Assembly (NCBI GenBank): GCA_964580705.1
Contig: CAZOKY010000001.1
Coordinates: forward strand, 1,224 to 65,223
DNA from: Candidatus Micrarchaeota archaeon
GTDB lineage: Archaea; Micrarchaeota; Micrarchaeia; Norongarragalinales; Norongarragalinaceae
Length of the DNA: 64,000 bases
Reading direction: 5' to 3'
The notes beneath the pieces were generated by a model that made no database searches, was not told the origin of the DNA, and worked only from the letters and a program-made list of their open reading frames with translations. The position numbers and the translations under genes are program-made. Of the stretch, positions 4,186 to 46,817 are shown in pieces (the first letter of the stretch is position 1; each line of letters begins with the position of its first letter).

Positions 4186-5954
4186 ATTTTCTCGGGCGCG
4201 CTGATTCCGAGCAACGCAAGCCCGTTCTCGATGACGCGAAGCGACGCGCCCACGATTTGCAAGCGACGCGCCTTGTCCTTTTCGTCGTCCGCCGCGAGAA
4301 CGGGACACGCAGCGTAAAAAGAATTGAACGCCGCACAGTAACGCAACAGGAAATCGCAGACTTGGTGAGGCTGCATCGCTCGCGCAGCGCTTTCGACGAC
4401 GAGCGGGAATTCCGCTGCGAGCGCGAGAAGCTGCTTCTCTTCCCTTCCAAAAACAGCGTTCTTGCCTGACTTGGCGGTTACGCCCGCATCCTCCGCTTTC
4501 GCGAGAATCCCCCTGCAGCGCACCAACGCGTACTGAACGTAAGCGCCAGTATCGCCTTCGAACGTCACCGCCGCAGCCGGATCGAAAACAATGTTTTTCT
4601 CAGGCGACACCCGCAGGAAAGCGAAACGCGCGCTTCCCACGCCGATTTGCTTCGCTATCGCATCGATTTCTTTCGCGTCGTAGTCGGAGCCGCGGCGCGC
4701 AAGCACTTGCTTCCTCGCCTCCGCAATTACTTCATTCAGAATGTCTTCGAGGAGAACGACGTTTCCTTGACGAGTCGACATTTTCCCGCTCGGCAACGAA
4801 ATCAACCCGAAAGCCACGTGCTTCAAGTGAGGCGCGTACTGCCTGCCCAAAAGGTCAAGGATTTTGAATACTTGCTGGAAATGGTTTTTTTGCTCGCTCC
4901 CGGTAACGTAAACGCATTCCGTGAAGCGATGCTTTTCGAAGCGGGTTTCCGCAAGCGCGAGATCGCGCGTCGAGTAAAGCGTCGTGCCGTTGCTGCGCAG
5001 CACTATGAGGTTCGGCAAAGCGAATTTCTCTAAATCGCCGACTATTTCCCCGCCCTTGTCGCGGAACGCCACTCTTTTTTCGAGGAGTTCAACGGCGATT
5101 TTCTTGGCAAGCGGAACCATATCGCTGTCGAAAATGGTTTCCTCGAAAGAAACGCCTAGAAGCGCGTAATTTCGCTGGAAGGCGTCAACGCTGATGCGCC
5201 GCACTTCCGCAAGCTCCTTCTTGAGTTTTATTTCCCCGCTCTCCATACCCTCGACGATTACCCGCGCCTTCTCGAGCAACTCAGGATTCTCCTCAATGCG
5301 CTTGTGAATCTTCACGTAATAATCCAGCAAATCCTTCTCGTCGTTCAGCTTCCGCTTTTCCAGCTCGTGCAACGCGAGCATGAGCTTCGCCGTCTGCGTT
5401 CCAGCCTCGCAGAGATAGTTCGAACCGACGACGCTCGCGCCAGAAGCGCGCAGCAAACGCATAATGCTGTCGCCGAGAATCGTGGAACGAATGTGCCCCA
5501 CGTGCATGGGCTTCCCGACGTTCGGAGAAGAGTAATCGATTACGACGCGCCGTTTTTTTCCTTCCGAGTTCGAACCGTAACCCGCACCGGCAGCGCCTAC
5601 TTCCTCGTTCAGCGCAGCGTAAAAAGCGTCGGAGTAAACGAAGTTAACGTAAGGCCCGAGCGCGCTCACCGACGAAAACGACGGCGGAAGATTCTTCTCC
5701 AACTCCGCAGCGAGCTTCTTCGCGATTTCAACCGGATTCTTTTTGGCTTGCTTCGCGATTTCGAACGACGCCGCACTGCTTAAATCCCCGAACTCGAACT
5801 TCGCCGGCCGCGCCACTGCAGGCGCGACTTTAACGGAAAAAAGTTTTTCCGCAGATGAAGCGATTGCCGCGGCTGCTTCGCCTTCGGCGCGCTTTTGAAG
5901 GCAAACCGCATTCTTCACGCCCGCAACGTTCTTCGCTTTCATCGGTTTAGCCAT
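4182..5954 (-). CDS. argS: arginyl-tRNA synthetase
   Basis: HVGH class I motif (PMHVGHIRSTILGD) and a DALR-type C-terminal region. The start was chosen at ATG 5954 (MAKPMK); the track start at 5972 is TTG. Confidence 0.85.
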   Translation of the reverse strand: MAKPMKAKNVAGVKNAVCLQKRAEGEAAAAIASSAEKLFSVKVAPAVARPAKFEFGDLSSAASFEIAKQAKKNPVEIAKKLAAELEKNLPPSFSSVSALGPYVNFVYSDAFYAALNEEVGAAGAGYGSNSEGKKRRVVIDYSSPNVGKPMHVGHIRSTILGDSIMRLLRASGASVVGSNYLCEAGTQTAKLMLALHELEKRKLNDEKDLLDYYVKIHKRIEENPELLEKARVIVEGMESGEIKLKKELAEVRRISVDAFQRNYALLGVSFEETIFDSDMVPLAKKIAVELLEKRVAFRDKGGEIVGDLEKFALPNLIVLRSNGTTLYSTRDLALAETRFEKHRFTECVYVTGSEQKNHFQQVFKILDLLGRQYAPHLKHVAFGLISLPSGKMSTRQGNVVLLEDILNEVIAEARKQVLARRGSDYDAKEIDAIAKQIGVGSARFAFLRVSPEKNIVFDPAAAVTFEGDTGAYVQYALVRCRGILAKAEDAGVTAKSGKNAVFGREEKQLLALAAEFPLVVESAARAMQPHQVCDFLLRYCAAFNSFYAACPVLAADDEKDKARRLQIVGASLRVIENGLALLGISAPEKM

Positions 5955-14449: not shown

Positions 14450-16063
14450 TCAACCAACGTTTTTTAGTCGCGCCGCAGCGAATCCTCGTTCCAACGCGTT
14501 CAGCAACGGCAAGAGCTTCGGCCCGCGCTCTCTGCCGATGAAGACGCCGTATGCGGCAGCAAAAAATTCCTGGATTTTAATGCCGTGCGCGGCGCACAAA
14601 CGCTTTATTTCCTCTGCTTGCGCGTCCGCGTCGTCGTGCAACGCGAAAAACTCGCCGAAATCAGCCAAAGCAGCCTTGGCGTTCAAATCAAGGGAATGAA
14701 AACGCTTGACCGCCTCTTCTCGCGTTAAAATCCTGAGCTTCGCTTCCTCGGGCGCCAGCTTCTCGAGCCAAACGCGCGCGTAACCAGCGCGTTCAGCCAA
14801 CAGTTTCTTCTCGTCGCTCGTCAACGCGCTTCCTTTCTGCTTCGCGAAAACCGTTTCCGCGTCCGCGCCGGGAATCTGGCTCACGGCAGCAACGAACGAG
14901 AATTGCGGGCGAAACATTTTCTTGGTTTCAATCAAATGCGAGAGCGCGTAAATGCGCGGCACGTCCGGGTCACGCGCCTCTTTTTCCTTGAAATAAACGG
15001 CTGCGGCTTCGTCGAATTGGTCGAATAAACGCGGAATCGTCTCGCCGCTAGGGTCAAAGTCAATCGCGCTCGCCGGCTTGTATTTAGTCATCAAAAAGCG
15101 GAGGAGTTCAGGCGGCAACAACGCGGCTACTTCGCTCGCGCTCACGCCGAGTCCTTTGCTTGAACTCATTTTCTTTCCGCCAATCAAAAAGAATTCGTAA
15201 GGCACGTTCACCGGTGGCTCGCGCTTGTAAACCTCGCGGTAAATAGCTTCAGCGACGTCCCGCGAACCGCCTGTCGTCGAATGGTCTTTCCCAGCGCCTT
15301 CAATGGTGACTCCCAGAATAAAGAATTTCGCGGGCCACTCGACTTTCCACGGAAGCTTCGCGCGCCCACCGAACGGAGAAACGCGCCCTTCGTACCCGCA
15401 GCCCTTCGCCCACGAAACGTAATTCGCGAGACATTTGTATTCAACTGTTTGGGTTTCGGGGTCGTAACTCGTGACTTTCGTCGTGCCTATGCGGCCGCAT
15501 TGCTCGCACACGACGCTCAACGGAAACCAATCCGCGTCTTTCGCTCCGCCGCTCACGCGCTCGTAAATCTCGCGTATTTTGGCGGCGTTCTCGAGCGTGA
15601 GCTTGATCGCTTCATCGTATTTCCCACGCTTGTAGTAGTCGCTTCCCCAGTAAATCTTCGGCTTCGCGCCCAAGCGCTCGAACACTTCCTGAAACTCGCG
15701 GAAATAATAGTCAGCATAGTTTTTGGCTCCGCTTGCGCCGTCGTCCGGCGCGGGCACAACGCACAACGGCTTGCCCATGAACTCCGCATACTTTTTCTTA
15801 TCGAGATAAATGGGAAGCGAATCCATTGGGTCGAAGTCGTCGACTCCGTAATAATAAACGCTTTTCACGCCCGCGTCGAGAAGGGCGCGGTGAATGATAT
15901 CGTGAATAATCACGCCGCGCAACGCGCCCACGTGCACGCGTCCGCTCGGCGTCTTCTCGTCTTCAACAACCTGCGGTTTTCCCGTTGCCGCGGCTGCGCG
16001 CGCGATTTGATCCGCCCAAAACATGTCGCGCTTCTCGTTTTTTTCTTTTTTAATTTCAGCCAT
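14450..16063 (-). CDS. lysK: lysyl-tRNA synthetase, class I
   Basis: Class I architecture (~530 aa), a GRVHVG HIGH-like motif and a KMSSSKG KMSKS-like motif. ATG start. Confidence 0.85.
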   Translation of the reverse strand: MAEIKKEKNEKRDMFWADQIARAAAATGKPQVVEDEKTPSGRVHVGALRGVIIHDIIHRALLDAGVKSVYYYGVDDFDPMDSLPIYLDKKKYAEFMGKPLCVVPAPDDGASGAKNYADYYFREFQEVFERLGAKPKIYWGSDYYKRGKYDEAIKLTLENAAKIREIYERVSGGAKDADWFPLSVVCEQCGRIGTTKVTSYDPETQTVEYKCLANYVSWAKGCGYEGRVSPFGGRAKLPWKVEWPAKFFILGVTIEGAGKDHSTTGGSRDVAEAIYREVYKREPPVNVPYEFFLIGGKKMSSSKGLGVSASEVAALLPPELLRFLMTKYKPASAIDFDPSGETIPRLFDQFDEAAAVYFKEKEARDPDVPRIYALSHLIETKKMFRPQFSFVAAVSQIPGADAETVFAKQKGSALTSDEKKLLAERAGYARVWLEKLAPEEAKLRILTREEAVKRFHSLDLNAKAALADFGEFFALHDDADAQAEEIKRLCAAHGIKIQEFFAAAYGVFIGRERGPKLLPLLNALERGFAAARLKNVG

Positions 16064-16110: not shown

Positions 16111-17304
16111 TTACGGTTGAATCCACTCGATCTCGTAATACTCGTACTTGCTTCCAGGAAGCTCAATGCGCTTCACGCGATAATACGTGATGCTCGTCTC
16201 GCGGTCGCAAATCGCGAGCACGAGATCGAGCCCCAACTGCTTCGCCTGTTCGAGCCCGCGCGCCAGCTCCGCGCCGCCCAACTCTTCTTCCTCGCTGAGC
16301 GCCAGCATTACGAACTTCGGTTTCCCAGTCCGCGGGTTCTCAGGCACGCTGCCCGCGCTCTCGCGGTGGTAAAGCAGGAAGTCGAGTTCGCTCGCTTCGA
16401 CGCGCTTCGCGCCGGGAATCGCGAGAATAAACGTCTTGCGCACGCCGTGCGCCACGCGAATCGCCCGCGCCCACTCGCTGATGAGCATTCTTGCTTCGCG
16501 CGGGAAAACGTGGATGACGTGCTTCGAGTGCATCCACTCGCCTTCGCCGAGCCCCGGGCTCGCGCCCGGGAAGTACAAGCGAAAGTGAGTGCCGAACTTG
16601 AAACCCGTCTTGACGACGAACCCACGCAAGCGCCAGTCTTCGTAAACCGAGTAAAGCGCGGGAAAATCGCTGCGGCGCGCAGTCGCGTCCTTAACGAGTT
16701 TTTTCTCTTTAACGTTGAGCACGAAACAAGCGTGCTTCATGAGGAACAACGTCTCGTAAGCGTCGAGTTTGAGAAAGCGACCGTGCTTCTTCGCCTTGTA
16801 CGTCCCCCACTGGCCGAACCAATTCTTTTCATACAACGCCTGCCCCTCGACGTCGTCATCGATGATCGACATCAAATCGTCGCTGAAGAACAAGCCTTTA
16901 GCCTTCACTTCGGGAAAATCGCTCGGTTTGCACGGGTACTTCTGTAACGGGCTGCGTCCGTAATTCGCGTTCGCATCCGCTTCATCGATGGGGCGCGCGA
17001 TGAGCCCGCGGTCACGCCAATCCTTGAAGCAAAAATAACGGGCGAGGAATTTCGGGTTGTTTTGAAACTTCGCCGCGACGGCATTAAACGAAAGCTCCTT
17101 TTTTTTCGCGTGGCACTTCGCGTTCCGCACGTCGATTAAATAAAGCGCTTCCTCGGGCGTCAACTCGATTTGAGTTTTTTTCCCGTCAAATTCGGTGCCG
17201 AAAAACGAGCGGTCGAGAGCTTGAACGGTGATTAAGTCGGTTACGACGACGTGTTCATCGCCTTTCTTGCCGACGACGCTTAATTCAGTAGTCACGAACT
17301 TCAT
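16111..17304 (-). CDS. endA: tRNA-splicing endonuclease EndA, long single-chain multi-unit form
   Basis: Catalytic-domain signature (YEDWRLRGFVVKTGFKFGTHFRLY ... HSKHVIHV) and an N-terminal domain (EALYLID ... LARYFCFKDWRDRG). At 397 aa it is roughly twice the alpha4 size, as in three-unit epsilon2-type enzymes. Confidence 0.8.
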   Translation of the reverse strand: MKFVTTELSVVGKKGDEHVVVTDLITVQALDRSFFGTEFDGKKTQIELTPEEALYLIDVRNAKCHAKKKELSFNAVAAKFQNNPKFLARYFCFKDWRDRGLIARPIDEADANANYGRSPLQKYPCKPSDFPEVKAKGLFFSDDLMSIIDDDVEGQALYEKNWFGQWGTYKAKKHGRFLKLDAYETLFLMKHACFVLNVKEKKLVKDATARRSDFPALYSVYEDWRLRGFVVKTGFKFGTHFRLYFPGASPGLGEGEWMHSKHVIHVFPREARMLISEWARAIRVAHGVRKTFILAIPGAKRVEASELDFLLYHRESAGSVPENPRTGKPKFVMLALSEEEELGGAELARGLEQAKQLGLDLVLAICDRETSITYYRVKRIELPGSKYEYYEIEWIQP

Positions 17305-25409: not shown

Positions 25410-25940
25410 TTGAACGCCCGACTTTTTAAACCTCAAGACTCACATATTAACGTCATGAAAACTCCGTTGTGCGAAGCGTGCCTGGCGACGAACTCGTTCT
25501 GCGCGTCGTGCCAGCGCAAGCTAGACGCAGGCGAAGTCACGCGCACCGAACTCGCCATCGCGCAAGCGCTGCGAAGCGAAAACCTTCCAGCTCAAGCGGG
25601 TTTCGAGCGCGCGCTCGAACTCAAGGACGCCGTCCTCGTATTCACGTTGACGCCTGCGGCGGTAATCGGCCGCGGCGGCAAAACCGTTAAAGCAATCGCG
25701 AAAGCCCTCGGCAAGAAAGTGAAGATAATCGATGAAGCCGCGGAGCCGCACGCGAAAATCAGTGAAGTGCTATTGCCAGCGCGAATGCTCGGCGTAAACA
25801 CCGTATTCAAAGCAGGCGGAAAAGAATTCCACGTGCGCGTTCCGCGCGCTGAAGCCCGCCTCCTGCCGGACGCGCCGCTCGCCCTGAAAACGCTGATGAG
25901 CGCGTTCCTCGGCGCGCCCACCGAAATCGTGCTCGAGTGA
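25410..25940 (+). CDS. zinc-ribbon plus KH-domain RNA-binding protein
   Basis: CEAC ... CASC zinc ribbon followed by KH GxxG (VIGRGGKTVKAIAKALGKKVKIID). The likely start is ATG 25455 (MKTPLCEAC). Confidence 0.6.
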   Translation: MNARLFKPQDSHINVMKTPLCEACLATNSFCASCQRKLDAGEVTRTELAIAQALRSENLPAQAGFERALELKDAVLVFTLTPAAVIGRGGKTVKAIAKALGKKVKIIDEAAEPHAKISEVLLPARMLGVNTVFKAGGKEFHVRVPRAEARLLPDAPLALKTLMSAFLGAPTEIVLE

Positions 25941-25979
25941 AAACTGGTTTTCTTTGAGCCGCATTCATAAAATTAGTAG

Positions 25980-26089
25980 TGGGCCCAAAGGGAATCGAAC
26001 CCTTGATCTTTTGCTGAACTAAGAACGAAAAACTCGTTCGAAGCCCTTTCGCACGTCAAGCGAACGTCTTACCACTCGACTATGGGCCC
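25980..26089 (-). tRNA. tRNA-Val (GAC) with a ~38-nt intron in the variable-loop region, a non-canonical position
   Basis: Hand-folded. Acceptor GGGCCCA/UGGGCCC, D-arm GUCG-AGUGGUAA, anticodon arm UUCGC-UUGACGU-GCGAA, T-arm AAGGG-UUCGAUU-CCCUU. 43 nt lie between position 43 and the T-stem instead of ~5. Confidence 0.7.
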
Positions 26090-26147
26090 ACGAAACTTAA
26101 GTCGTTTCCCGAAAAAACAAAGCGAGAAACCCATTTAAAACAACGAG

Positions 26148-26262
26148 TGGACCTGACGGGATTCGAACCCGTAACCTCATGCATGCCATGCATGCGATCT
26201 GTAACGCGCGGCGGACGATTGAAAAAATAATCGCTCGAGGCGTGCCGTTGATCTACAGGCCC
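26148..26262 (-). tRNA. tRNA-Ala (GGC) with a ~42-nt intron inside the D-loop, a non-canonical position
   Basis: Hand-folded. Acceptor GGGCCUG/CAGGUCC with a G3-U70 pair (Ala identity), anticodon arm CAUGC-AUGGCAU-GCAUG, T-arm ACGGG-UUCGAAU-CCCGU. The D-stem halves GAUC..GAUC are separated by 50 nt. Confidence 0.65.
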
Positions 26263-26289
26263 ACATGGCGCCGCACCGATTAAGGCGCG

Positions 26290-26352
26290 GCTACTTATTT
26301 TGCCCGCTAGGGCTTAAAAAACCTCTTTCTTTTCTCGCCTAAAGAAAGTTTT
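26290..26352 (-). terminator. hairpin followed by a T-tract downstream of the Sm gene (possible archaeal intrinsic terminator)
   Basis: Minus-strand transcript after the stop: cuuucuuu-aggcgaga-aaagaaag then agg-uuuuuu. Confidence 0.3.
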
Positions 26353-26658
<306 letters not shown>

Positions 26659-26681
26659 TCAAAACGCATAACGCAAAAAAA

Positions 26682-27473
26682 TTATTTTGCTCTGAAAAGC
26701 CTTTTGAAGAACGCGCCGATCTTGCCGAAAAACGAGCCTCCGCTTCCCCCGACGTTCTTGCCTTGAGGAACCGGCTCGTGCGTCAACGCCGCAGACAAAA
26801 AGCGGAGCCCGCGCGAGAAACCGCAGTCCGGAGCCCGCACCTCGACGGGCTGCTGCAAGGAAGCGCTGCGCCTGACTTCCACGTCCTCGGGAAGGACGGC
26901 TATAACGGGCAACCCCAGAACGCTCGCCAAATCCTGCGGCTTCAACTCAGACTTGTCCCCCGTACTCCGATTGAGGACTACGCCTAGAACCGTAACCCCG
27001 CTTTTCTCGGCGAACTTGCGAATCTTCAACGAGTCTATGAGCGCAGCAGGATCGGGCGTGGAAATAATGACGAGTTCCTGCGCGCTCGTAATCGCCGCCC
27101 GCGCTTCCGGACTCAACCCCGGAGGCGAATCAACCAAAACGTATTCGTAAGACAACTCGAGCTTGCTGACGGCTTCCCGCAAACGAGTCAAGTCGACTTC
27201 TTTACGCTCTTCATGAAGCGAAGACGGAACGTAAAAAACACCGTTCGGGCCGGCGTAAACCGCGTCCGTAACCGCGTTTTCTCCGGCGAGAACGTTTTGA
27301 AGCGTAATCGGATTGATTTCCACGCCGAGCATAATCGATACGGCGGCCATATCCAAGTCTGCGTCGACTACTACGACGCGCTTGCCCGTTTTGGCTAGTA
27401 GAATGCCGAGGTTCAAGGCTACGCTCGTCTTGCCTACGCCGCCTTTACCTGAAGCGAAAACAATGCTCGGCAT
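26682..27473 (-). CDS. minD: MinD/ParA-family P-loop ATPase
   Basis: Deviant Walker A (ASGKGGVGKT). ATG 27473 (MPSIVF...); the track start at 27488 is TTG. Confidence 0.8.
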   Translation of the reverse strand: MPSIVFASGKGGVGKTSVALNLGILLAKTGKRVVVVDADLDMAAVSIMLGVEINPITLQNVLAGENAVTDAVYAGPNGVFYVPSSLHEERKEVDLTRLREAVSKLELSYEYVLVDSPPGLSPEARAAITSAQELVIISTPDPAALIDSLKIRKFAEKSGVTVLGVVLNRSTGDKSELKPQDLASVLGLPVIAVLPEDVEVRRSASLQQPVEVRAPDCGFSRGLRFLSAALTHEPVPQGKNVGGSGGSFFGKIGAFFKRLFRAK

Positions 27474-33114: not shown

Positions 33115-34014
33115 TTACTGAGTCGGAGCTGCGGGAGCTGCAGGAACTGCAGGAGTCGCCGGAGCAGCCGGAGCCGCTTCAGGCGCGGGCGTCGCCGCCG
33201 CTTCCTCCTTCTTTTCTTCCGTTTTTTCTTCCTTCTTTTCACCAGCAGGAACTTTGGACTTCACCAATTTGTCAATCGCGTTCGCCTCACGCGCCGCCTT
33301 CGCTATGATGAGCGGCGTGCTTTCAGCGTTGTAAATCTCCGCGAAAACGCAGAGATTCAAAGCATGTTGAACCGCCTGCGTCAAGCTCGCCTTGAACGCT
33401 TCGTCGTCAATGTCAAGCACGGCGCCTTCGTAAAGCGTTCCGTGATCCCAAACCGCGCGCACTTGCATCATTAACTCCATGGGTTCGATTCCCAGCTTCG
33501 CGAGAATTCCCGCGACGGGCGCGCTAATGGGTTCGCCTTTCTTCGCGACGACAGTATCACGCGTAATCACGATTTTCGGTCCCTGGATTTTCGCGTCAAT
33601 CTTCGCCTGCTTGAGTTCCGTCAGCACGGGTCCGGGAGGAAGACTCGTTTCCCCGGCGGGAACGATTAAATCGCAAGGCGCGAGTTGCCCTGCTTTCGCG
33701 ATAGTCTTCGACTTTGCCTGCTTGAACAACTTGTATAAGCGGAAAGCATCGAGCTCCGTCGTGAGCAGCACGGCACCGTTGCACCAATACTTTTCGAGTT
33801 CCTTCGCTTCCGGCTTCGCGGATTCGAGCGCGCGAGCCATCAACGTTTGCCTGGCAAAAAAGAATTTGACTTTGTCGCTCGTCTTCTTCTTGATTGCGCC
33901 GTACTGCTTGCCTGGCAAGGAAGCGTTGCTTGCTATGGCGATTACTTGCGCGCCCGCTAGTTCTTTCACCATGTGCTTGACGAGCACTTGCTTTTCTTTC
34001 TTGGATAAAACCAT
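33115..34014 (-). CDS. rpl10: ribosomal stalk protein L10 (aP0)
   Basis: P0 core. The C-terminus is an Ala/Pro-rich tail ending AAPTQ, lacking the GLxALFG tail it normally shares with P1. Confidence 0.85.
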   Translation of the reverse strand: MVLSKKEKQVLVKHMVKELAGAQVIAIASNASLPGKQYGAIKKKTSDKVKFFFARQTLMARALESAKPEAKELEKYWCNGAVLLTTELDAFRLYKLFKQAKSKTIAKAGQLAPCDLIVPAGETSLPPGPVLTELKQAKIDAKIQGPKIVITRDTVVAKKGEPISAPVAGILAKLGIEPMELMMQVRAVWDHGTLYEGAVLDIDDEAFKASLTQAVQHALNLCVFAEIYNAESTPLIIAKAAREANAIDKLVKSKVPAGEKKEEKTEEKKEEAAATPAPEAAPAAPATPAVPAAPAAPTQ

Positions 34015-34017
34015 GGA

Positions 34018-34755
34018 TTAAGCACTCTGAGGATTCTGAGGATTTTGTGAATTCTGTGAATTCTGAGAAACGTCATTCGCTTGAACTGCATGCCCTTTAG
34101 TCTTCGCGATTTTCGCGCCGATCTTGGCGGGTTTGCCCATCGTCGTCTTCACGTAAATGCTCTTGATTTTGGATTCAACTACTTTCTTCAATATCGCTTC
34201 AACTACGGCGAAAGCGTTTTCCGTGATTTGCTCGACGGGCATTGATTCGTTGCCGACGGGGCAGTGAACGCAAGGCAAGTATTTTCCTTTGCTTTTAATG
34301 GAAATCGTGCGCCTCGAACGCTCGAACAAGTCTTTGAGGTTCGTTCCCGGGGGAATGGGGCGTGCGTTGCGGTTGTGCGCCGCGAGGAATTGTCCAAGCG
34401 CTTTTCCGACTTGCGCCATGAGCTTCGGCTCGCTTAAAACGAAGTAGTCGACGAGTTTCGCTTGCTTCGGCTTGTCGGACGCGTAAGAAGCGATTTCACT
34501 GCTTGGAATGACTAAATCCGCGCCTGCTTTCTGCATTTCGCTTGCGACGACTCCGTCGGCGAACACGGCAATCTTGACTTGCTTCGGCGGATAAGGAAGG
34601 ACGACGTCGAAGTTCGGGCGGTTCTCGGGTTTCTTTAAGTCCAAGTCGCGGAAATTGAATGCGAGGTCGACGCTTTGAGTGAACTTGCGTTTGCCTTTGC
34701 CGTCGGCGAGCGCTAAGGCTACTGCTTCTCCAACCGCTTTCTTGTCGAGAACCAT
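34018..34755 (-). CDS. rpl1: ribosomal protein L1 with a C-terminal NSQNSQNPQNPQ repeat tail
   Basis: L1 core; the repeat tail is encoded by gaattctgtgaattctg DNA repeats. Confidence 0.9.
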   Translation of the reverse strand: MVLDKKAVGEAVALALADGKGKRKFTQSVDLAFNFRDLDLKKPENRPNFDVVLPYPPKQVKIAVFADGVVASEMQKAGADLVIPSSEIASYASDKPKQAKLVDYFVLSEPKLMAQVGKALGQFLAAHNRNARPIPPGTNLKDLFERSRRTISIKSKGKYLPCVHCPVGNESMPVEQITENAFAVVEAILKKVVESKIKSIYVKTTMGKPAKIGAKIAKTKGHAVQANDVSQNSQNSQNPQNPQSA

Positions 34756-34945
34756 TTTTTCAAAACCTTAAAGCCAAAAGCCTTATTTCTAAAGAACAAG
34801 TTTTTCCGAAGCGCTCTTTTGACGAAAGGACTCTTTTGCAGAGTCAATCCCTCCTGCGCGAAAACCGCGAAGTGGTTTAGTGCAGTTCGAGCGGGAAAAA
34901 CAGTTAAACGACGAACACTAATTTTGCGAAAGGTGGTTTTTAAAC

Positions 34946-35983
34946 CTATTGAAAGCGAGTCAACGTATCCTGTTTTCCAAGCAATATGTTAAAAGCATTT
35001 TCGGCTTCTCGCGCAGTATTTCGCTCAATATTTTCTTTGATGTGATGAATAACCCCGGAAAATTTAGCATCCGGTTTGGTAACTATAATCAGATCGTAGT
35101 GAAAAGGAATTCCCGTTCTAACTGCAATTGTTTCAACAGTTTTTCCAGTTTCTCGTATTTTTTCGACATAATAATCGAGAGGCGTTTTCGTTCCAAAATC
35201 GGAAGAACCCAAAAATCGTTTGAGGGCGCCTAGGTTATGTGGATTTCGGGTAACGTTGGAGGTTGGAAAGTTTATTATCAAATCACAGTATCGGTGTTCT
35301 AAAAGTTTGTTTATTGTCGCCCAATCGGCGTCTAACCCCTGGTTATCAATAAAGACAAGAGCGTGATGTTTTCCTGATTGAGTAAGTTCGGCAAGTATGC
35401 CGTCAACGGCTAAATTACAATCGCCATGAATTAGCTTAAATTGACTTTTACTGAGACCGGCGTTAGTCAGTATGTCTAAACGGCCGCGCAAAGCATCTAA
35501 GTTAGTTTTGTTTTCGTCTACAAAAAACATTTTCTTAAAAGGCGGGATAGCGGTGGCAGCTATGAGCGGAGAGCCGACAATATAATGTTTTTTAGAACAT
35601 TTCGAGCATTTTTCAGGTTGTGGCTCGCAATCTCGATATTTACACACAAGATCAATGCCTGAATTCGAAAGTAAGTCAATGAAATAAAAATTATCACCTA
35701 TGTTTCGACTTATTATTGGAACATAGCAGCTATGGGCGTATGCGGCGAGGCAATAAAGTTTGAGCGGCGCCCAAAAGTTCGCTAGAAAAAAACTACTGGG
35801 GTCAACTTCGACTAAGGCAGGCATGACCGACGAGTATTTTTTAAGTATTGGATCAAGACGGTCGGTAAAAGATTTTTTTGGTTTATCTCGCATACATCGG
35901 CGCCAGTAATTTTTTATCAGATTTCGTGTTCTGCGTCCTAAACATTTTCTCGGTTCGAGGGTTATATTCTTTTCTCGTACCAA
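34946..35983 (-). CDS. hypothetical protein with a C-x6-C-x2-C cysteine cluster, in an AT-rich island (candidate partner of the adjacent radical-SAM-like enzyme)
   Basis: 345-aa ORF with markedly lower GC than its flanks. Cys cluster CEPQPEKCSKC. The true start is probably internal (M at 35893 or 35824), because the track start overlaps the upstream gene by 100 nt. Confidence 0.5.
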   Translation of the reverse strand: MVREKNITLEPRKCLGRRTRNLIKNYWRRCMRDKPKKSFTDRLDPILKKYSSVMPALVEVDPSSFFLANFWAPLKLYCLAAYAHSCYVPIISRNIGDNFYFIDLLSNSGIDLVCKYRDCEPQPEKCSKCSKKHYIVGSPLIAATAIPPFKKMFFVDENKTNLDALRGRLDILTNAGLSKSQFKLIHGDCNLAVDGILAELTQSGKHHALVFIDNQGLDADWATINKLLEHRYCDLIINFPTSNVTRNPHNLGALKRFLGSSDFGTKTPLDYYVEKIRETGKTVETIAVRTGIPFHYDLIIVTKPDAKFSGVIHHIKENIERNTAREAENAFNILLGKQDTLTRFQ

Positions 35984-36749
35984 ATTTTATGTGACATGAT
36001 ATTCCGTTTTCCTTACAAAAGTCAAGCACTTCGTTAGCATGAGACTCGTAAAAGAATTCATTGTCCTTGAAGGAACTGCTTTTCGTGTTGTAATTCAGCT
36101 TGCCGAAAATAATTTTGTCGACGAAAGAAACGCTTTCCAAAATATCGTTCAAATCCTGTTCTACGAGGTTCGGCGTCGGGTAAGGCTCCATGCTAACCCA
36201 AGTCCGCAAACCCTCGTCATGCAAACGCTTCAAGGCTTTTACTCGCTGGTTGTAAGGCGCGCTGAACGGCTCAAACTCCTTCTTGAAACTAGCATCGTTC
36301 GAAACCAGCGTGATTCCGTACTCGTTGTCGAAACCGTATTTCTCCGCGTCAGCCAGCATTGCCGGGTATAGCCCTTTCGTTAAGACAGTGCTTCTGATTC
36401 CGTACGAATTCAGTTTTTCGATGATTTTAGACGACATTTTCGCTACTTCAGGGTAGCCGTACATGAACGGGTCGGTCGTAAAACACAAGTGAACGAAATT
36501 GATTTTATCGGCGTGCTTGGGAATCTCTTCATCCAATAATTCGAGCGCGTTTTCAACTAGTTTCGGCTTGCACCAGTCAGAGTAAGACTTTACTTTGCCG
36601 AAGCGAATCGCCATCATCATGGCGTAGCAAGGAAAACGGCAGCCGTGAGCGCAGCCTTCAACGTGGTTAATGCAGTAGTCCGCGTATTCTACCTTGCTTC
36701 GGTACAATAGCGACTTTTTTCTGATAGTCTGCATTAACCAACCACCCAA
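35883..36749 (-). CDS. radical-SAM superfamily protein of the SplB / DNA-repair-photolyase-like type (COG1533-like) with a variant Cx3Cx3C cluster motif
   Basis: INHVEGCAHGCRFPCYAMM resembles the SplB-family N..GC.HGC.YCYA motif but carries one extra residue between the second and third Cys. AT-rich coding sequence. Confidence 0.55.
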   Translation of the reverse strand: MGGWLMQTIRKKSLLYRSKVEYADYCINHVEGCAHGCRFPCYAMMMAIRFGKVKSYSDWCKPKLVENALELLDEEIPKHADKINFVHLCFTTDPFMYGYPEVAKMSSKIIEKLNSYGIRSTVLTKGLYPAMLADAEKYGFDNEYGITLVSNDASFKKEFEPFSAPYNQRVKALKRLHDEGLRTWVSMEPYPTPNLVEQDLNDILESVSFVDKIIFGKLNYNTKSSSFKDNEFFYESHANEVLDFCKENGISCHIKFGTRKEYNPRTEKMFRTQNTKSDKKLLAPMYAR

Positions 36750-45477: not shown

Positions 45478-45503
45478 GGAATCAACTAAGCGGAAAAAAA
45501 GAG

Positions 45504-45574
45504 TGCGGCCGCCGGGAATCGAACCCGGGTCTCAAGCTTGGAAAGCTCGAATCATACCATTGGACCACGGCCGC
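45504..45574 (-). tRNA. tRNA-Gly (UCC)
   Basis: Hand-folded: GCGGCCG acceptor, anticodon loop UUUCCAA, T-arm CCGGG-UUCGAUU-CCCGG. Confidence 0.8.
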
Positions 45575-45626
45575 GCGAAAACGAGAAACCGAATTAAGTT
45601 TATCGATTGCGGGAAATAAAAACGAG

Positions 45627-45700
45627 TGGGGGAACCGAGATTCGAACTCGGGTCACGACCACCCCAAGGTCGTAGCATTGCCAGGCTAGCCCATTCCCCC
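45627..45700 (-). tRNA. tRNA-Pro (GGG)
   Basis: Hand-folded: GGGGGAA acceptor, anticodon arm CGACC-UUGGGGU-GGUCG, T-arm CCGAG-UUCGAAU-CUCGG. Confidence 0.8.
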
Positions 45701-45728: not shown

Positions 45729-46817
45729 TCAAACGCTCGAGAAAGCATTATAGTAAGCTTCATTGTTTTTAACCCATTCGGGAACGCCGCAAGAACGCAA
45801 CGCGCGCTTTCCGAAAGGCAAACCCTGCGAAAGCAGCCAAGAAACAATCGCACGGCTGCAAACCAAGCAACGATAACTACGCGCGCCCGTCTTCGTCGCG
45901 TAAGGAACGCGCAAACCGAATTCTTCCTCAATCACGCCCGCAAAATCGCGCAGCAGTTTTTCCGAAGACGAAACCACGTAAAACTGTTTTCCGTTGCGGA
46001 TAACGTTTCCGTAACGCATGACGTAAGCCAGCAACTTCGCCAAATTCGCGTTCAGTTGAACGGGAATCTCAACGCGCCATTTTTCAGGTTGTTTTTCGGC
46101 GTCAAAACGAAAATCGTTAAACCACAAAGCGTTTTTGTAACCAAGAGGTGCTACAGAATGCGTTTCAGCGACCTTGCGCAACAAGCTGTTTTTCACTGCA
46201 TCACAACCGAAATCGACTTCTCGCTCGAAAGCAGGCAACGACTTGGTTCGAATAAGGAAACTCAACGCCGCCGTGGTTTTACCATCTTTCCTCAGGTTTC
46301 CAGGTTGAAGCCAAGTTCGAGAAGTCGCCACGCCGAATGTTCGTAGCATTTCCTTCAAGTCTTCAACGAAAGCGATTCCTCCGTCAAGCAATTCCTCGCT
46401 CTTGAAAACCTTGAAGCCGACGCTGAAAGAATAGGCATTGCTTTTCTTCGAAATCCAACCCTCGCATTGAAAAGCAGTCGCGAGGTAAGCACGGGAAAAC
46501 GCTCGATTTTCTTTGATCCAACGCGGGACTCGAAAAACGCAAAGCATTTTGTCTCCTTTCGGCGCCCCTGCTTCGAACAACAACCTGCTGACCCGCACGC
46601 TGTTAAAACGGCACTTGAAACTCGTTCCGAAACCAGTGCCTTTCGCGTAACTAGATTTCAAATCGAACTTATTTTTTACCAACGCCTCGAAGTCTTTCAA
46701 CGCTTGCCAGTCGGCAGAAGACAGGTAGAAGTGAGAAAGATTTTTACTTAAGTGGCCGTCGAACGTCACGTAACTAATTATTCGCGCCAAATCAGCGTCA
46801 AAAAAAGTAGAGTTCAC
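45729..46817 (-). CDS. LAGLIDADG-like (double-motif) homing-endonuclease-family protein, free-standing
   Basis: ARIISYVTFDGHLS and AYLATAFQCEGWIS resemble the two LAGLIDADG helices. A possible degenerate third repeat (LLAYVMRYGNVI). 362 aa; immediately 3' of two tRNA genes. Confidence 0.4.
   Translation of the reverse strand: MNSTFFDADLARIISYVTFDGHLSKNLSHFYLSSADWQALKDFEALVKNKFDLKSSYAKGTGFGTSFKCRFNSVRVSRLLFEAGAPKGDKMLCVFRVPRWIKENRAFSRAYLATAFQCEGWISKKSNAYSFSVGFKVFKSEELLDGGIAFVEDLKEMLRTFGVATSRTWLQPGNLRKDGKTTAALSFLIRTKSLPAFEREVDFGCDAVKNSLLRKVAETHSVAPLGYKNALWFNDFRFDAEKQPEKWRVEIPVQLNANLAKLLAYVMRYGNVIRNGKQFYVVSSSEKLLRDFAGVIEEEFGLRVPYATKTGARSYRCLVCSRAIVSWLLSQGLPFGKRALRSCGVPEWVKNNEAYYNAFSSV

Follow-up and report, generated by a model that had tools for sequence, protein, structure and literature searches.

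A probable 38-nt protein-spliced intron between the anticodon stem and variable loop of a Micrarchaeota tRNA-Val(GAC) gene

In a 64-kb stretch of archaeal DNA (the whole of which we refer to as the window) we find a tRNA-Val(GAC) gene that is interrupted by 38 nt where the anticodon stem meets the variable loop. We consider it very probable that this is a functional tRNA gene of a member of the Micrarchaeota and that the interruption is a protein-spliced intron of the bulge-helix-bulge (BHB) type, located at position 43/44. The gene, the exact insert, a complementarity and bulge geometry that recur across six inserts, and an enzyme gene that carries specificity residues are all directly observed.

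The archaeal nature of the window is evident from its gene content, which includes MCM, Alba, aEF-2, a NusA-like KH protein, class I LysRS, ribosomal proteins and SecY. The KH gene, which adjoins the tRNA genes discussed below, has close homologues at 78-96% identity, one of them named as belonging to a Candidatus Norongarragalinales archaeon. Norongarragalinales is an order in the class Micrarchaeia of the DPANN group, and the nearest named relatives of the window are Norongarragalinales/Micrarchaeota MAGs. On the contigs that carry the KH homologues, the gene order Alba - KH - tRNAs - LSM - ParA-like is kept, while the DNA of these syntenic contigs is only about 70-80% identical to that of the window. 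Elsewhere in the window, GC content falls to 0.44 at 34001-36000, compared with about 0.53 in the remainder; two ORFs overlap this dip, one at 34946-35983 that lacks any Pfam match and another at 35883-36749. A 362-aa ORF with a LAGLIDADG_3 domain (45729-46817, minus strand) directly adjoins a tRNA-Pro(GGG)/tRNA-Gly(UCC) pair at 45503-45700, and another relative has a LAGLIDADG-domain gene near its KH gene.

The interrupted gene is made up of the following parts:

25980-26089, minus strand: tRNA-Val(GAC) gene, a precursor body of 110 nt that is 72 nt long when spliced, with no encoded CCA (Rfam RF00005, ARAGORN -i)
26048-26089, minus strand: 5' exon, Sprinzl positions 1-43, holding the anticodon GAC; identical to the exons of L001, L005, L013, L024, L027 and L067
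26010-26047, minus strand: 38-nt intron AGGGCUUCGAACGAGUUUUUCGUUCUUAGUUCAGCAAA, drawn at 43/44; absent from L001, placed by the shared geometry of six inserts
25980-26009, minus strand: 3' exon, Sprinzl positions 44-73, comprising the variable loop AGAUC, the T arm, the 3' strand of the acceptor stem and A73

An earlier note on this DNA, made from the letters alone, had proposed a tRNA-Val(GAC) with canonical arms, and the gene is recovered as such both by the Rfam tRNA model and by ARAGORN in intron mode. RF00005 matches 25980-26089 on the minus strand end to end (model positions 1-71) with 60.6 bits and an E-value of 1.2e-10, the gathering score being 29 bits; an insertion of about 39 nt falls in the variable region of the alignment, after the anticodon stem. 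The covariance model thus accepts the tRNA and does not place the insert at 37/38. The acceptor stem reads GGGCCCA/UGGGCCC, the D arm is normal, and the anticodon stem UUCGC/GCGAA encloses the 7-nt loop UUGACGU, with the anticodon GAC at 26055-26057. The earlier note had counted 43 nt between anticodon stem and T stem, which is exact on direct reading; the strand, which it had left unstated, is minus. The T arm follows as AAGGG-UUCGAUU-CCCUU, the discriminator is A73, and CCA is not encoded. Valine identity elements are A35, C36 and A73. ARAGORN misses the gene in its default mode and reports tRNA-Val(gac) with a 38-nt intron when run with -i, the in-silico spliced product being a clean 72-nt cloverleaf. 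The precursor is also unusually stable for its composition, with a z-score of -3.99 and none of 200 shuffles as stable. Neither ARAGORN, Rfam nor sequence comparison finds a second Val(GAC) gene in the 64-kb window, in which default gene finders overlook two of the five tRNA genes.

The anticodon arm is invariant, and we used an exact 21-nt pattern of it to collect loci; of the stretches obtained, 37 are from species-representative genomes and 30 are from metagenomes, most of them Micrarchaeota MAGs alongside some other DPANN archaea. The tRNAs in these loci are nearly all Val or Ala, with a few others besides. Across the loci, tRNA-Val(GAC) is either uninterrupted or carries inserts in at least four regions (the D-loop, about position 21, 43/44 in the variable region, and the T-loop), and some of the genes have two inserts. 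Many of the tRNA-Val introns in loci L002-L072 have cores of the CUUUUCUUU...AAAGAAAG type. One locus, L054, shares 100% identity with the window across 3144 nt and comes from the same population; we therefore dropped it as independent confirmation.

The most informative relative is L001, whose gene at 5194-5265 has the same exons as the window and no insert; it is 72 nt long, scores 72.2 bits and has the variable loop AGAUC. Because its exons are identical, it tells us that the mature variable loop of the window gene is AGAUC and that the insert measures 38 nt, the figure that the earlier note had given as approximate. The spliced sequence of the window gene equals that of L001, with a predicted junction at which ...GUGCGAA is joined to AGAUCAAGG. 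Within the intron, GAACGA (26034-26039) and UCGUUC (26023-26028) form an inner hairpin. No Rfam intron model matches anywhere in 25500-27000 at E-values up to 10. A self-splicing group I or group II intron is ruled out by size, 38 nt comparing with a ribozyme core of hundreds of nucleotides, and a C/D-box guide RNA within the intron was likewise discarded, given that no box C or D is seen by eye and that 38 nt are too short.

Where precisely should the cuts be drawn? A/G repeats at both ends of the insert make the junction ambiguous between 41/42 and 45/46 by sequence alone, and any cut in this range leaves the product of the window gene unchanged. There are six different variable-region inserts, 36-56 nt long (those of the window and L054, in L049, in L005 and L012, in L013, in L024, and in L067), which fall into about two sequence families and hence do not amount to six independent observations. 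In L005, a Norongarragalinales MAG, a different sequence of 43 nt occupies the site of the window's insert; in L002-L004 the variable loop is intact and the D-loop has an insert of 36 nt. All six variable-region inserts can be drawn with a 5' site A42 A43/N and a 3' site A N/A44 (the slash marking the cut), and AG (44-45) is invariant after the 3' junction in all of them. It is this common geometry, together with the invariant AG, that points to a register of 43/44, inside the stretch of roughly 43-48 in which the earlier note had suspected an intron at a non-canonical site.

The alternative that survives best retains an intron cut by the splicing endonuclease EndA and merely shifts its register, for example to the 45/46 site in the variable loop. 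The window gene by itself is indifferent, as cuts from 41/42 through 45/46 all yield one mature sequence, and a register of 45/46 is catalogued among archaeal non-canonical sites in a non-exhaustive list that does not name 43/44 (PMC4090602). Against this, the window gene offers no BHB-like pairing for a register of 45/46. Cutting at 45/46 in L013, L024 and L067 would moreover produce the loops GCAUC, GCAAC and GGAUC, whereas cutting at 43/44 gives loops that begin with AG (AGAUC or AGAAC). Nor does the pattern of variation favour it: right after the 3' junction AG is constant, and it is the two bases following GCGAA that vary. Overall, we regard a register other than 43/44 as improbable.

At 43/44, the precursor can form the following elements around the junctions:

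26050-26053, minus strand: exon strand of the central helix H (U38 G39 C40 G41), the pairs of which are kept in the unconstrained minimum free energy fold
26012-26015, minus strand: intron strand of helix H (AGCA), followed by AA/A44 as the 3' splice-site segment
26016-26046, minus strand: intron helix h', in which GGGCU (26042-26046) pairs with AGUUC (26016-26020) and closes the intron hairpin

In canonical motifs, four exon bases immediately preceding the 5' bulge have as their partners the four intron bases that precede the 3' bulge (PMC4090602), and in the structure of the ARMAN-2 EndA-RNA complex it is the bond between the second and third bulge bases that is cut (PMC12397907). In the Val precursor, the 5' splice-site bulge consists of A42, A43 and the first intron base (AA/A in the window), and h' provides five contiguous pairs directly after it; in precursor numbering, H corresponds to 37-40/75-78, the bulge to 41-43 and h' to 44-48/70-74 (G44-U48 with A70-C74). 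Cuts after the second bulge base in the 43/44 register reproduce the mature sequence of the orthologue. Helix H is not equally good in all six cases: in the window and L049, exon UGCG faces AGCA to give 3 bp and a G.A apposition, while in L005, L013, L024 and L067 it faces CGCA or CGCG to give the full 4 bp.

What the motif lacks in every case is an outer helix, for which we count 0 bp in all six inserts. The 3' splice segment is unpaired and is not closed by an adjacent helix. An alternative exon-exon helix (31-35/47-51) can be formed 2 nt from the 3' site, at the cost of the T stem. Since all six have a 3' site without an abutting helix, the motif, as judged from predicted pairing, is of the relaxed HBh' type as defined previously (PMC3239211), with a closed 5' bulge and an open 3' site. 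Strict BHB scans of the Val precursor, allowing both bulge topologies, returned only motifs whose removal gives nonsense products. Hence the BHB motif envisaged by the earlier note can be formed in a relaxed version, while a strict hBHBh' motif that leaves a valid tRNA cannot. Specific to the Val intron is an HBh' variant whose central helix takes its exon half from the anticodon stem, namely from that stem's 3' strand.

The unconstrained minimum free energy fold of the precursor (-44.5 kcal/mol) includes h' and 3 bp of helix H. With the D arm held intact, however, stability favours the cloverleaf conformer (-40.6 kcal/mol) over the splicing conformer (-34.9 kcal/mol), implying that remodelling or enzyme binding energy is involved. 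We envisage the following sequence of events. Once the gene is transcribed, U38-G41 would leave their partner in the anticodon stem and pair with the intron bases AGCA, located 2 nt upstream of the 3' junction. This pairing would expose a 3-nt bulge, made up of A42, A43 and the first base of the intron and closed by the 5-bp intron helix, with the 3' junction A-A/A44 sitting in an unpaired segment that no helix abuts, as expected of a relaxed HBh'-type motif. A homodimeric epsilon2 endonuclease would then cut at both junctions, in each case after the second base of the segment, following which an RtcB-type ligase would join the exons, the anticodon stem would re-form and CCA would be added.

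A candidate for the endonuclease is encoded 9 kb from the tRNA-Val gene, next to the class I LysRS gene (14450-16063):

16111-17304, minus strand: epsilon2-type tRNA-splicing endonuclease (EndA), 397 aa, identified by Pfam and by alignment with ARMAN-2 EndA

The protein matches PF01974 (1.2e-27) and PF02778 and has a single catalytic domain in its middle, at residues 147-297. Against ARMAN-2 EndA (4FZ2/9W2K) it aligns with an E-value of 3.6e-122 and 50.8% identity (residues 17-397 against 12-387), that is, end to end with the three-unit ARMAN-2 chain (alpha-N, alpha, beta-C). The catalytic Tyr/His/Lys are kept as Y244, H259 and K290, and so are the RNA-binding residues R283 and W394. The sequence of the ARMAN-specific loop (ASL) is GTYKAKKH, against GTYKVSEH in ARMAN-2; Y169 and K170 are conserved. 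In ARMAN-2, this loop and its lysine K161 are required for cleavage of relaxed motifs, and grafting the ASL into a narrow-specificity enzyme transfers that ability (PMC3488258). The ARMAN-2 enzyme cuts both strict 37/38 and relaxed 59/60 substrates in vitro, in an organism 56% of whose tRNA genes are interrupted; the relaxed substrate tried was of the hBH/BHL type at 59/60 and not HBh' at 43/44 (PMC3239211). More generally, strict hBHBh' motifs are substrates of alpha4 and alpha'2 enzymes, and relaxed HBh' motifs belong with broad-specificity enzymes. The earlier note had argued that its intron needs an endonuclease of relaxed specificity, and this holds up: only a relaxed motif can be formed, and the genome encodes a broad-specificity, epsilon2-type enzyme. 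We infer from its sequence that the EndA of the window would be the enzyme that cuts the Val intron. RtcB has no match among the window's eight ORFs of at least 400 aa, so that the ligase appears to be encoded elsewhere.

The Val intron is not the only interruption at this locus. A second tRNA gene, 60 nt upstream, is split in a different place:

26148-26262, minus strand: tRNA-Ala(GGC), with G3:U70 and A73, 60 nt upstream of tRNA-Val; assigned from its strict motif and its orthologues
26201-26243, minus strand: 43-nt intron located at about 20/21, within the D-loop of tRNA-Ala; its motif is a strict hBHBh'

Here the D stem supplies the outer helix, with AACG/CGUU as H and with GC/A and AC/A as bulges. 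This gene serves as a control for the register: applied to tRNA-Ala, the rule used for the Val intron leads to a strict hBHBh' motif and the correct mature tRNA. ARAGORN in default mode and Rfam at its gathering score both miss tRNA-Ala. In intron mode, ARAGORN calls a tRNA-Val(tac) at 26147-26262, which we rejected: it is identified as tRNA-Ala(GGC) by G3:U70, by the strict motif and by its orthologues, some of which have the D-loop intron and some of which do not. In L049, the D-loop of tRNA-Ala has no intron and the gene is interrupted at 37/38 only. In other relatives, tRNA-Ala(GGC) has two introns, one in the D-loop and one of 35-52 nt at the canonical 37/38 site (L001 5301-5452, L002 5057-5192 and L005 1442-1573, all on the minus strand); in the window, the 37/38 intron has been lost or was never present. 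Upstream of tRNA-Ala, four loci (window 26263-26320 on the minus strand, L001, L002 and L005) have a conserved motif, (A/C)AATAAGTAGCCGCGC, with a TTTTTAAG-like box before it, and in the window and L002 an extra 22 nt or so, capable of forming a hairpin, separates this motif from the 5' end of tRNA-Ala.

Could the tRNA-Val gene nevertheless be a pseudogene, inactivated by a random insertion? The motif is indeed imperfect, at 3 bp plus G.A and with no outer helix; we infer the splicing, and our view is limited to 64 kb. However, the exons share 100% identity with those of other organisms even though the DNA around the gene agrees at only about 70-80%, which means that selection on tRNA-Val persists. 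A random insertion would also have had to land exactly where splice geometry can form, next to a tRNA-Ala gene that is itself interrupted, with a strict motif, and with the matching enzyme encoded nearby. Given, in addition, that the 64 kb contain no other Val(GAC) gene, we attach only a slight probability to inactivation.

We think it still less probable that the 38 nt are retained and that the mature tRNA has a very long extra arm in its variable region. Admittedly, in the cloverleaf conformer (-40.6 kcal/mol) the insert forms a stable hairpin that projects from the variable region, and the Rfam model tolerates it as an insertion there. Known long variable arms measure about 13-21 nt. The insert is absent from an orthologue with identical exons, the gene does not belong to class II, and unrelated inserts of 36-56 nt in relatives all complement exon positions 38-41, for which a structural arm would have no need. 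Moreover, valine tRNAs are of class I, and known long arms are those of Leu, Ser and bacterial Tyr (PMC4033280). The last alternative, a near-canonical anticodon-loop intron of 38 nt starting from gene position 38, is what ARAGORN -i outputs and has next to no chance of being right, as the program models introns in that loop only, the product would have the stem GCAAA with a C.A mismatch where intron-less L001 has GCGAA, and the covariance model puts the insert after the anticodon stem.

With a BHB-type intron at 43/44 as the most probable explanation, how might it have arrived there? The exact exons of the window gene occur with at least five intron configurations (in the window, L001, L005, L013, L024, L027 and L067), from which it follows that introns turn over fast relative to exon change. 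The clearest case for movement concerns two relatives. Over about 45 nt, the intron at 43/44 in L067 can be aligned with the one in the D-loop of L024, at a score of 55 (p <= 0.001, dinucleotide shuffles). At their 3' ends, the L067 intron reads ...CGCG-AG opposite exon UGCG and the L024 D-loop intron ...CUCG-AG opposite exon CGAG, so that the single G/U difference between these ends matches the exon base it faces (C40 vs A14). With the exon side being fixed by tRNA function, this is the nearest one can get to covariation. Movement of the L067/L024 family between the D-loop and 43/44 is well supported by sequence comparison.

For the Val intron of the window itself, the picture is less clear-cut. 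It has a core that is collinear with part of the D-loop introns in the tRNA-Ala of relatives, matching that of L005 at 21 of 25 nt, including an exact run of 14 nt, and that of L002 at 11 of 11. As evidence of homology, counts of shared words are undermined by chance matches in coding DNA, and we replaced them with a group test. Coding sequence contains exact chance matches to the Val intron of 16 nt (L013 1411-1426, plus strand) and 13 nt (L067, around 5117-5129, minus strand), and short-word statistics are unreliable in this composition. In the group test, we summed the similarity of the Val intron to four orthologous Ala D-loop introns and obtained p-values of about 2e-4 against dinucleotide shuffles and, with real 38-mers taken from these loci as decoys, of 3e-4 to 7e-4; because the group was picked after seeing the data, allowing for some six possible groups leaves about 0.003. 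Descent of the Val intron from the neighbouring tRNA-Ala D-loop intron is therefore likely on these comparisons, if not established.

Taken together, relatives with identical exons that either lack the intron or have introns elsewhere, and a core that resembles the tRNA-Ala D-loop intron, suggest that the Val intron is a recent and probably mobile acquisition. We regard the chances as evenly balanced for the broader proposition that short BHB introns are mobile in Micrarchaeota at present, with one family found in the D-loop or at 43/44 in different genomes, its 3' end retuned by one base, and the Val intron perhaps a copy of the one in Ala. If true, insertion sites would be selected by the complementarity of an intron's 3' end to the exon, and the Micrarchaeota, with their compact genomes and a crystallised endonuclease, would become a tractable second system, besides the Thermoproteales, for studying the mechanism of intron transposition.

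Taken alone, the Val intron is one more non-canonical tRNA intron, of a kind that specialists would expect in Micrarchaeota. What gives the locus its value is that a single stretch of 64 kb combines a relaxed-motif intron, a strict-motif intron and a broad-specificity enzyme, and so provides an internally controlled example, while close relatives supply intron-less and differently interrupted alleles of tRNA-Val as a natural series. This series is suited to questions about the acceptance of HBh' motifs by epsilon2 enzymes, the remodelling of the anticodon stem for cleavage, and the movement of introns between sites.

Much of the wider framework has already been published: non-canonical archaeal introns, hBH/HBh' motifs and their link to broad-specificity enzymes, transposition in Thermoproteales, and the epsilon2 enzyme of Micrarchaeota. 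We do not claim 43/44 as a new site either, as the review list that includes 45/46 and does not include 43/44 is open-ended (PMC4090602). The closest known system is ARMAN-2 (Candidatus Micrarchaeum acidiphilum), which has non-canonical introns cut by an epsilon2 enzyme, for example at 59/60 in pre-tRNA-Cys(GCA) (PMC3239211, PMC3488258, PMC12397907). Both organisms belong to the class Micrarchaeia and share an orthologous enzyme (51% identity, key residues included), a relaxed motif and many interrupted tRNA genes. Unlike in pre-tRNA-Cys of ARMAN-2, the site in the window is at 43/44 rather than in the T-loop and the intron has 38 nt rather than 13; and where the ARMAN-2 substrate is hBH/BHL, the motif predicted here is HBh', with the 5' site in a closed bulge and the 3' site open.

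Among the Crenarchaea, the Thermoproteales have non-canonical introns, including some at 45/46, and introns there have transposed from one tRNA gene to another (Sugahara 2008; Fujishima 2010; both as related in PMC4090602 and PMC4033280). Going by these secondary accounts, the parallels are introns in or beside the variable loop, the use of hBH/HBh' motifs, related introns at different sites and in different tRNAs, and rapid gain and loss between close relatives. The differences, on the same accounts, are that their enzyme is an (alpha-beta)2 form with a Crenarchaea-specific loop, that they belong to another phylum, and that the register in the window is 43/44. With the canonical 37/38 intron and its strict hBHBh' motif, the Val intron shares the rule of architecture, by which four exon bases lie opposite four intron bases (here three pairs and a G.A apposition) and the predicted cuts come after the second bulge base, but it has no outer helix, and because its exon strand is 38-41 instead of 32-35 the anticodon stem must open. 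Finally, tRNA-Thr(GGU) of Caldiarchaeum subterraneum (PMC3293823) similarly presents one locus with differing intron configurations in closely related genomes; in contrast to that case, no recombinase or mobile element flanks the locus in the window, and the evidence is of short intron sequences moving. Particular to the present locus, then, are an HBh' intron that occurs alongside an epsilon2 enzyme and, in Micrarchaeota, signs of recent intron movement between sites.
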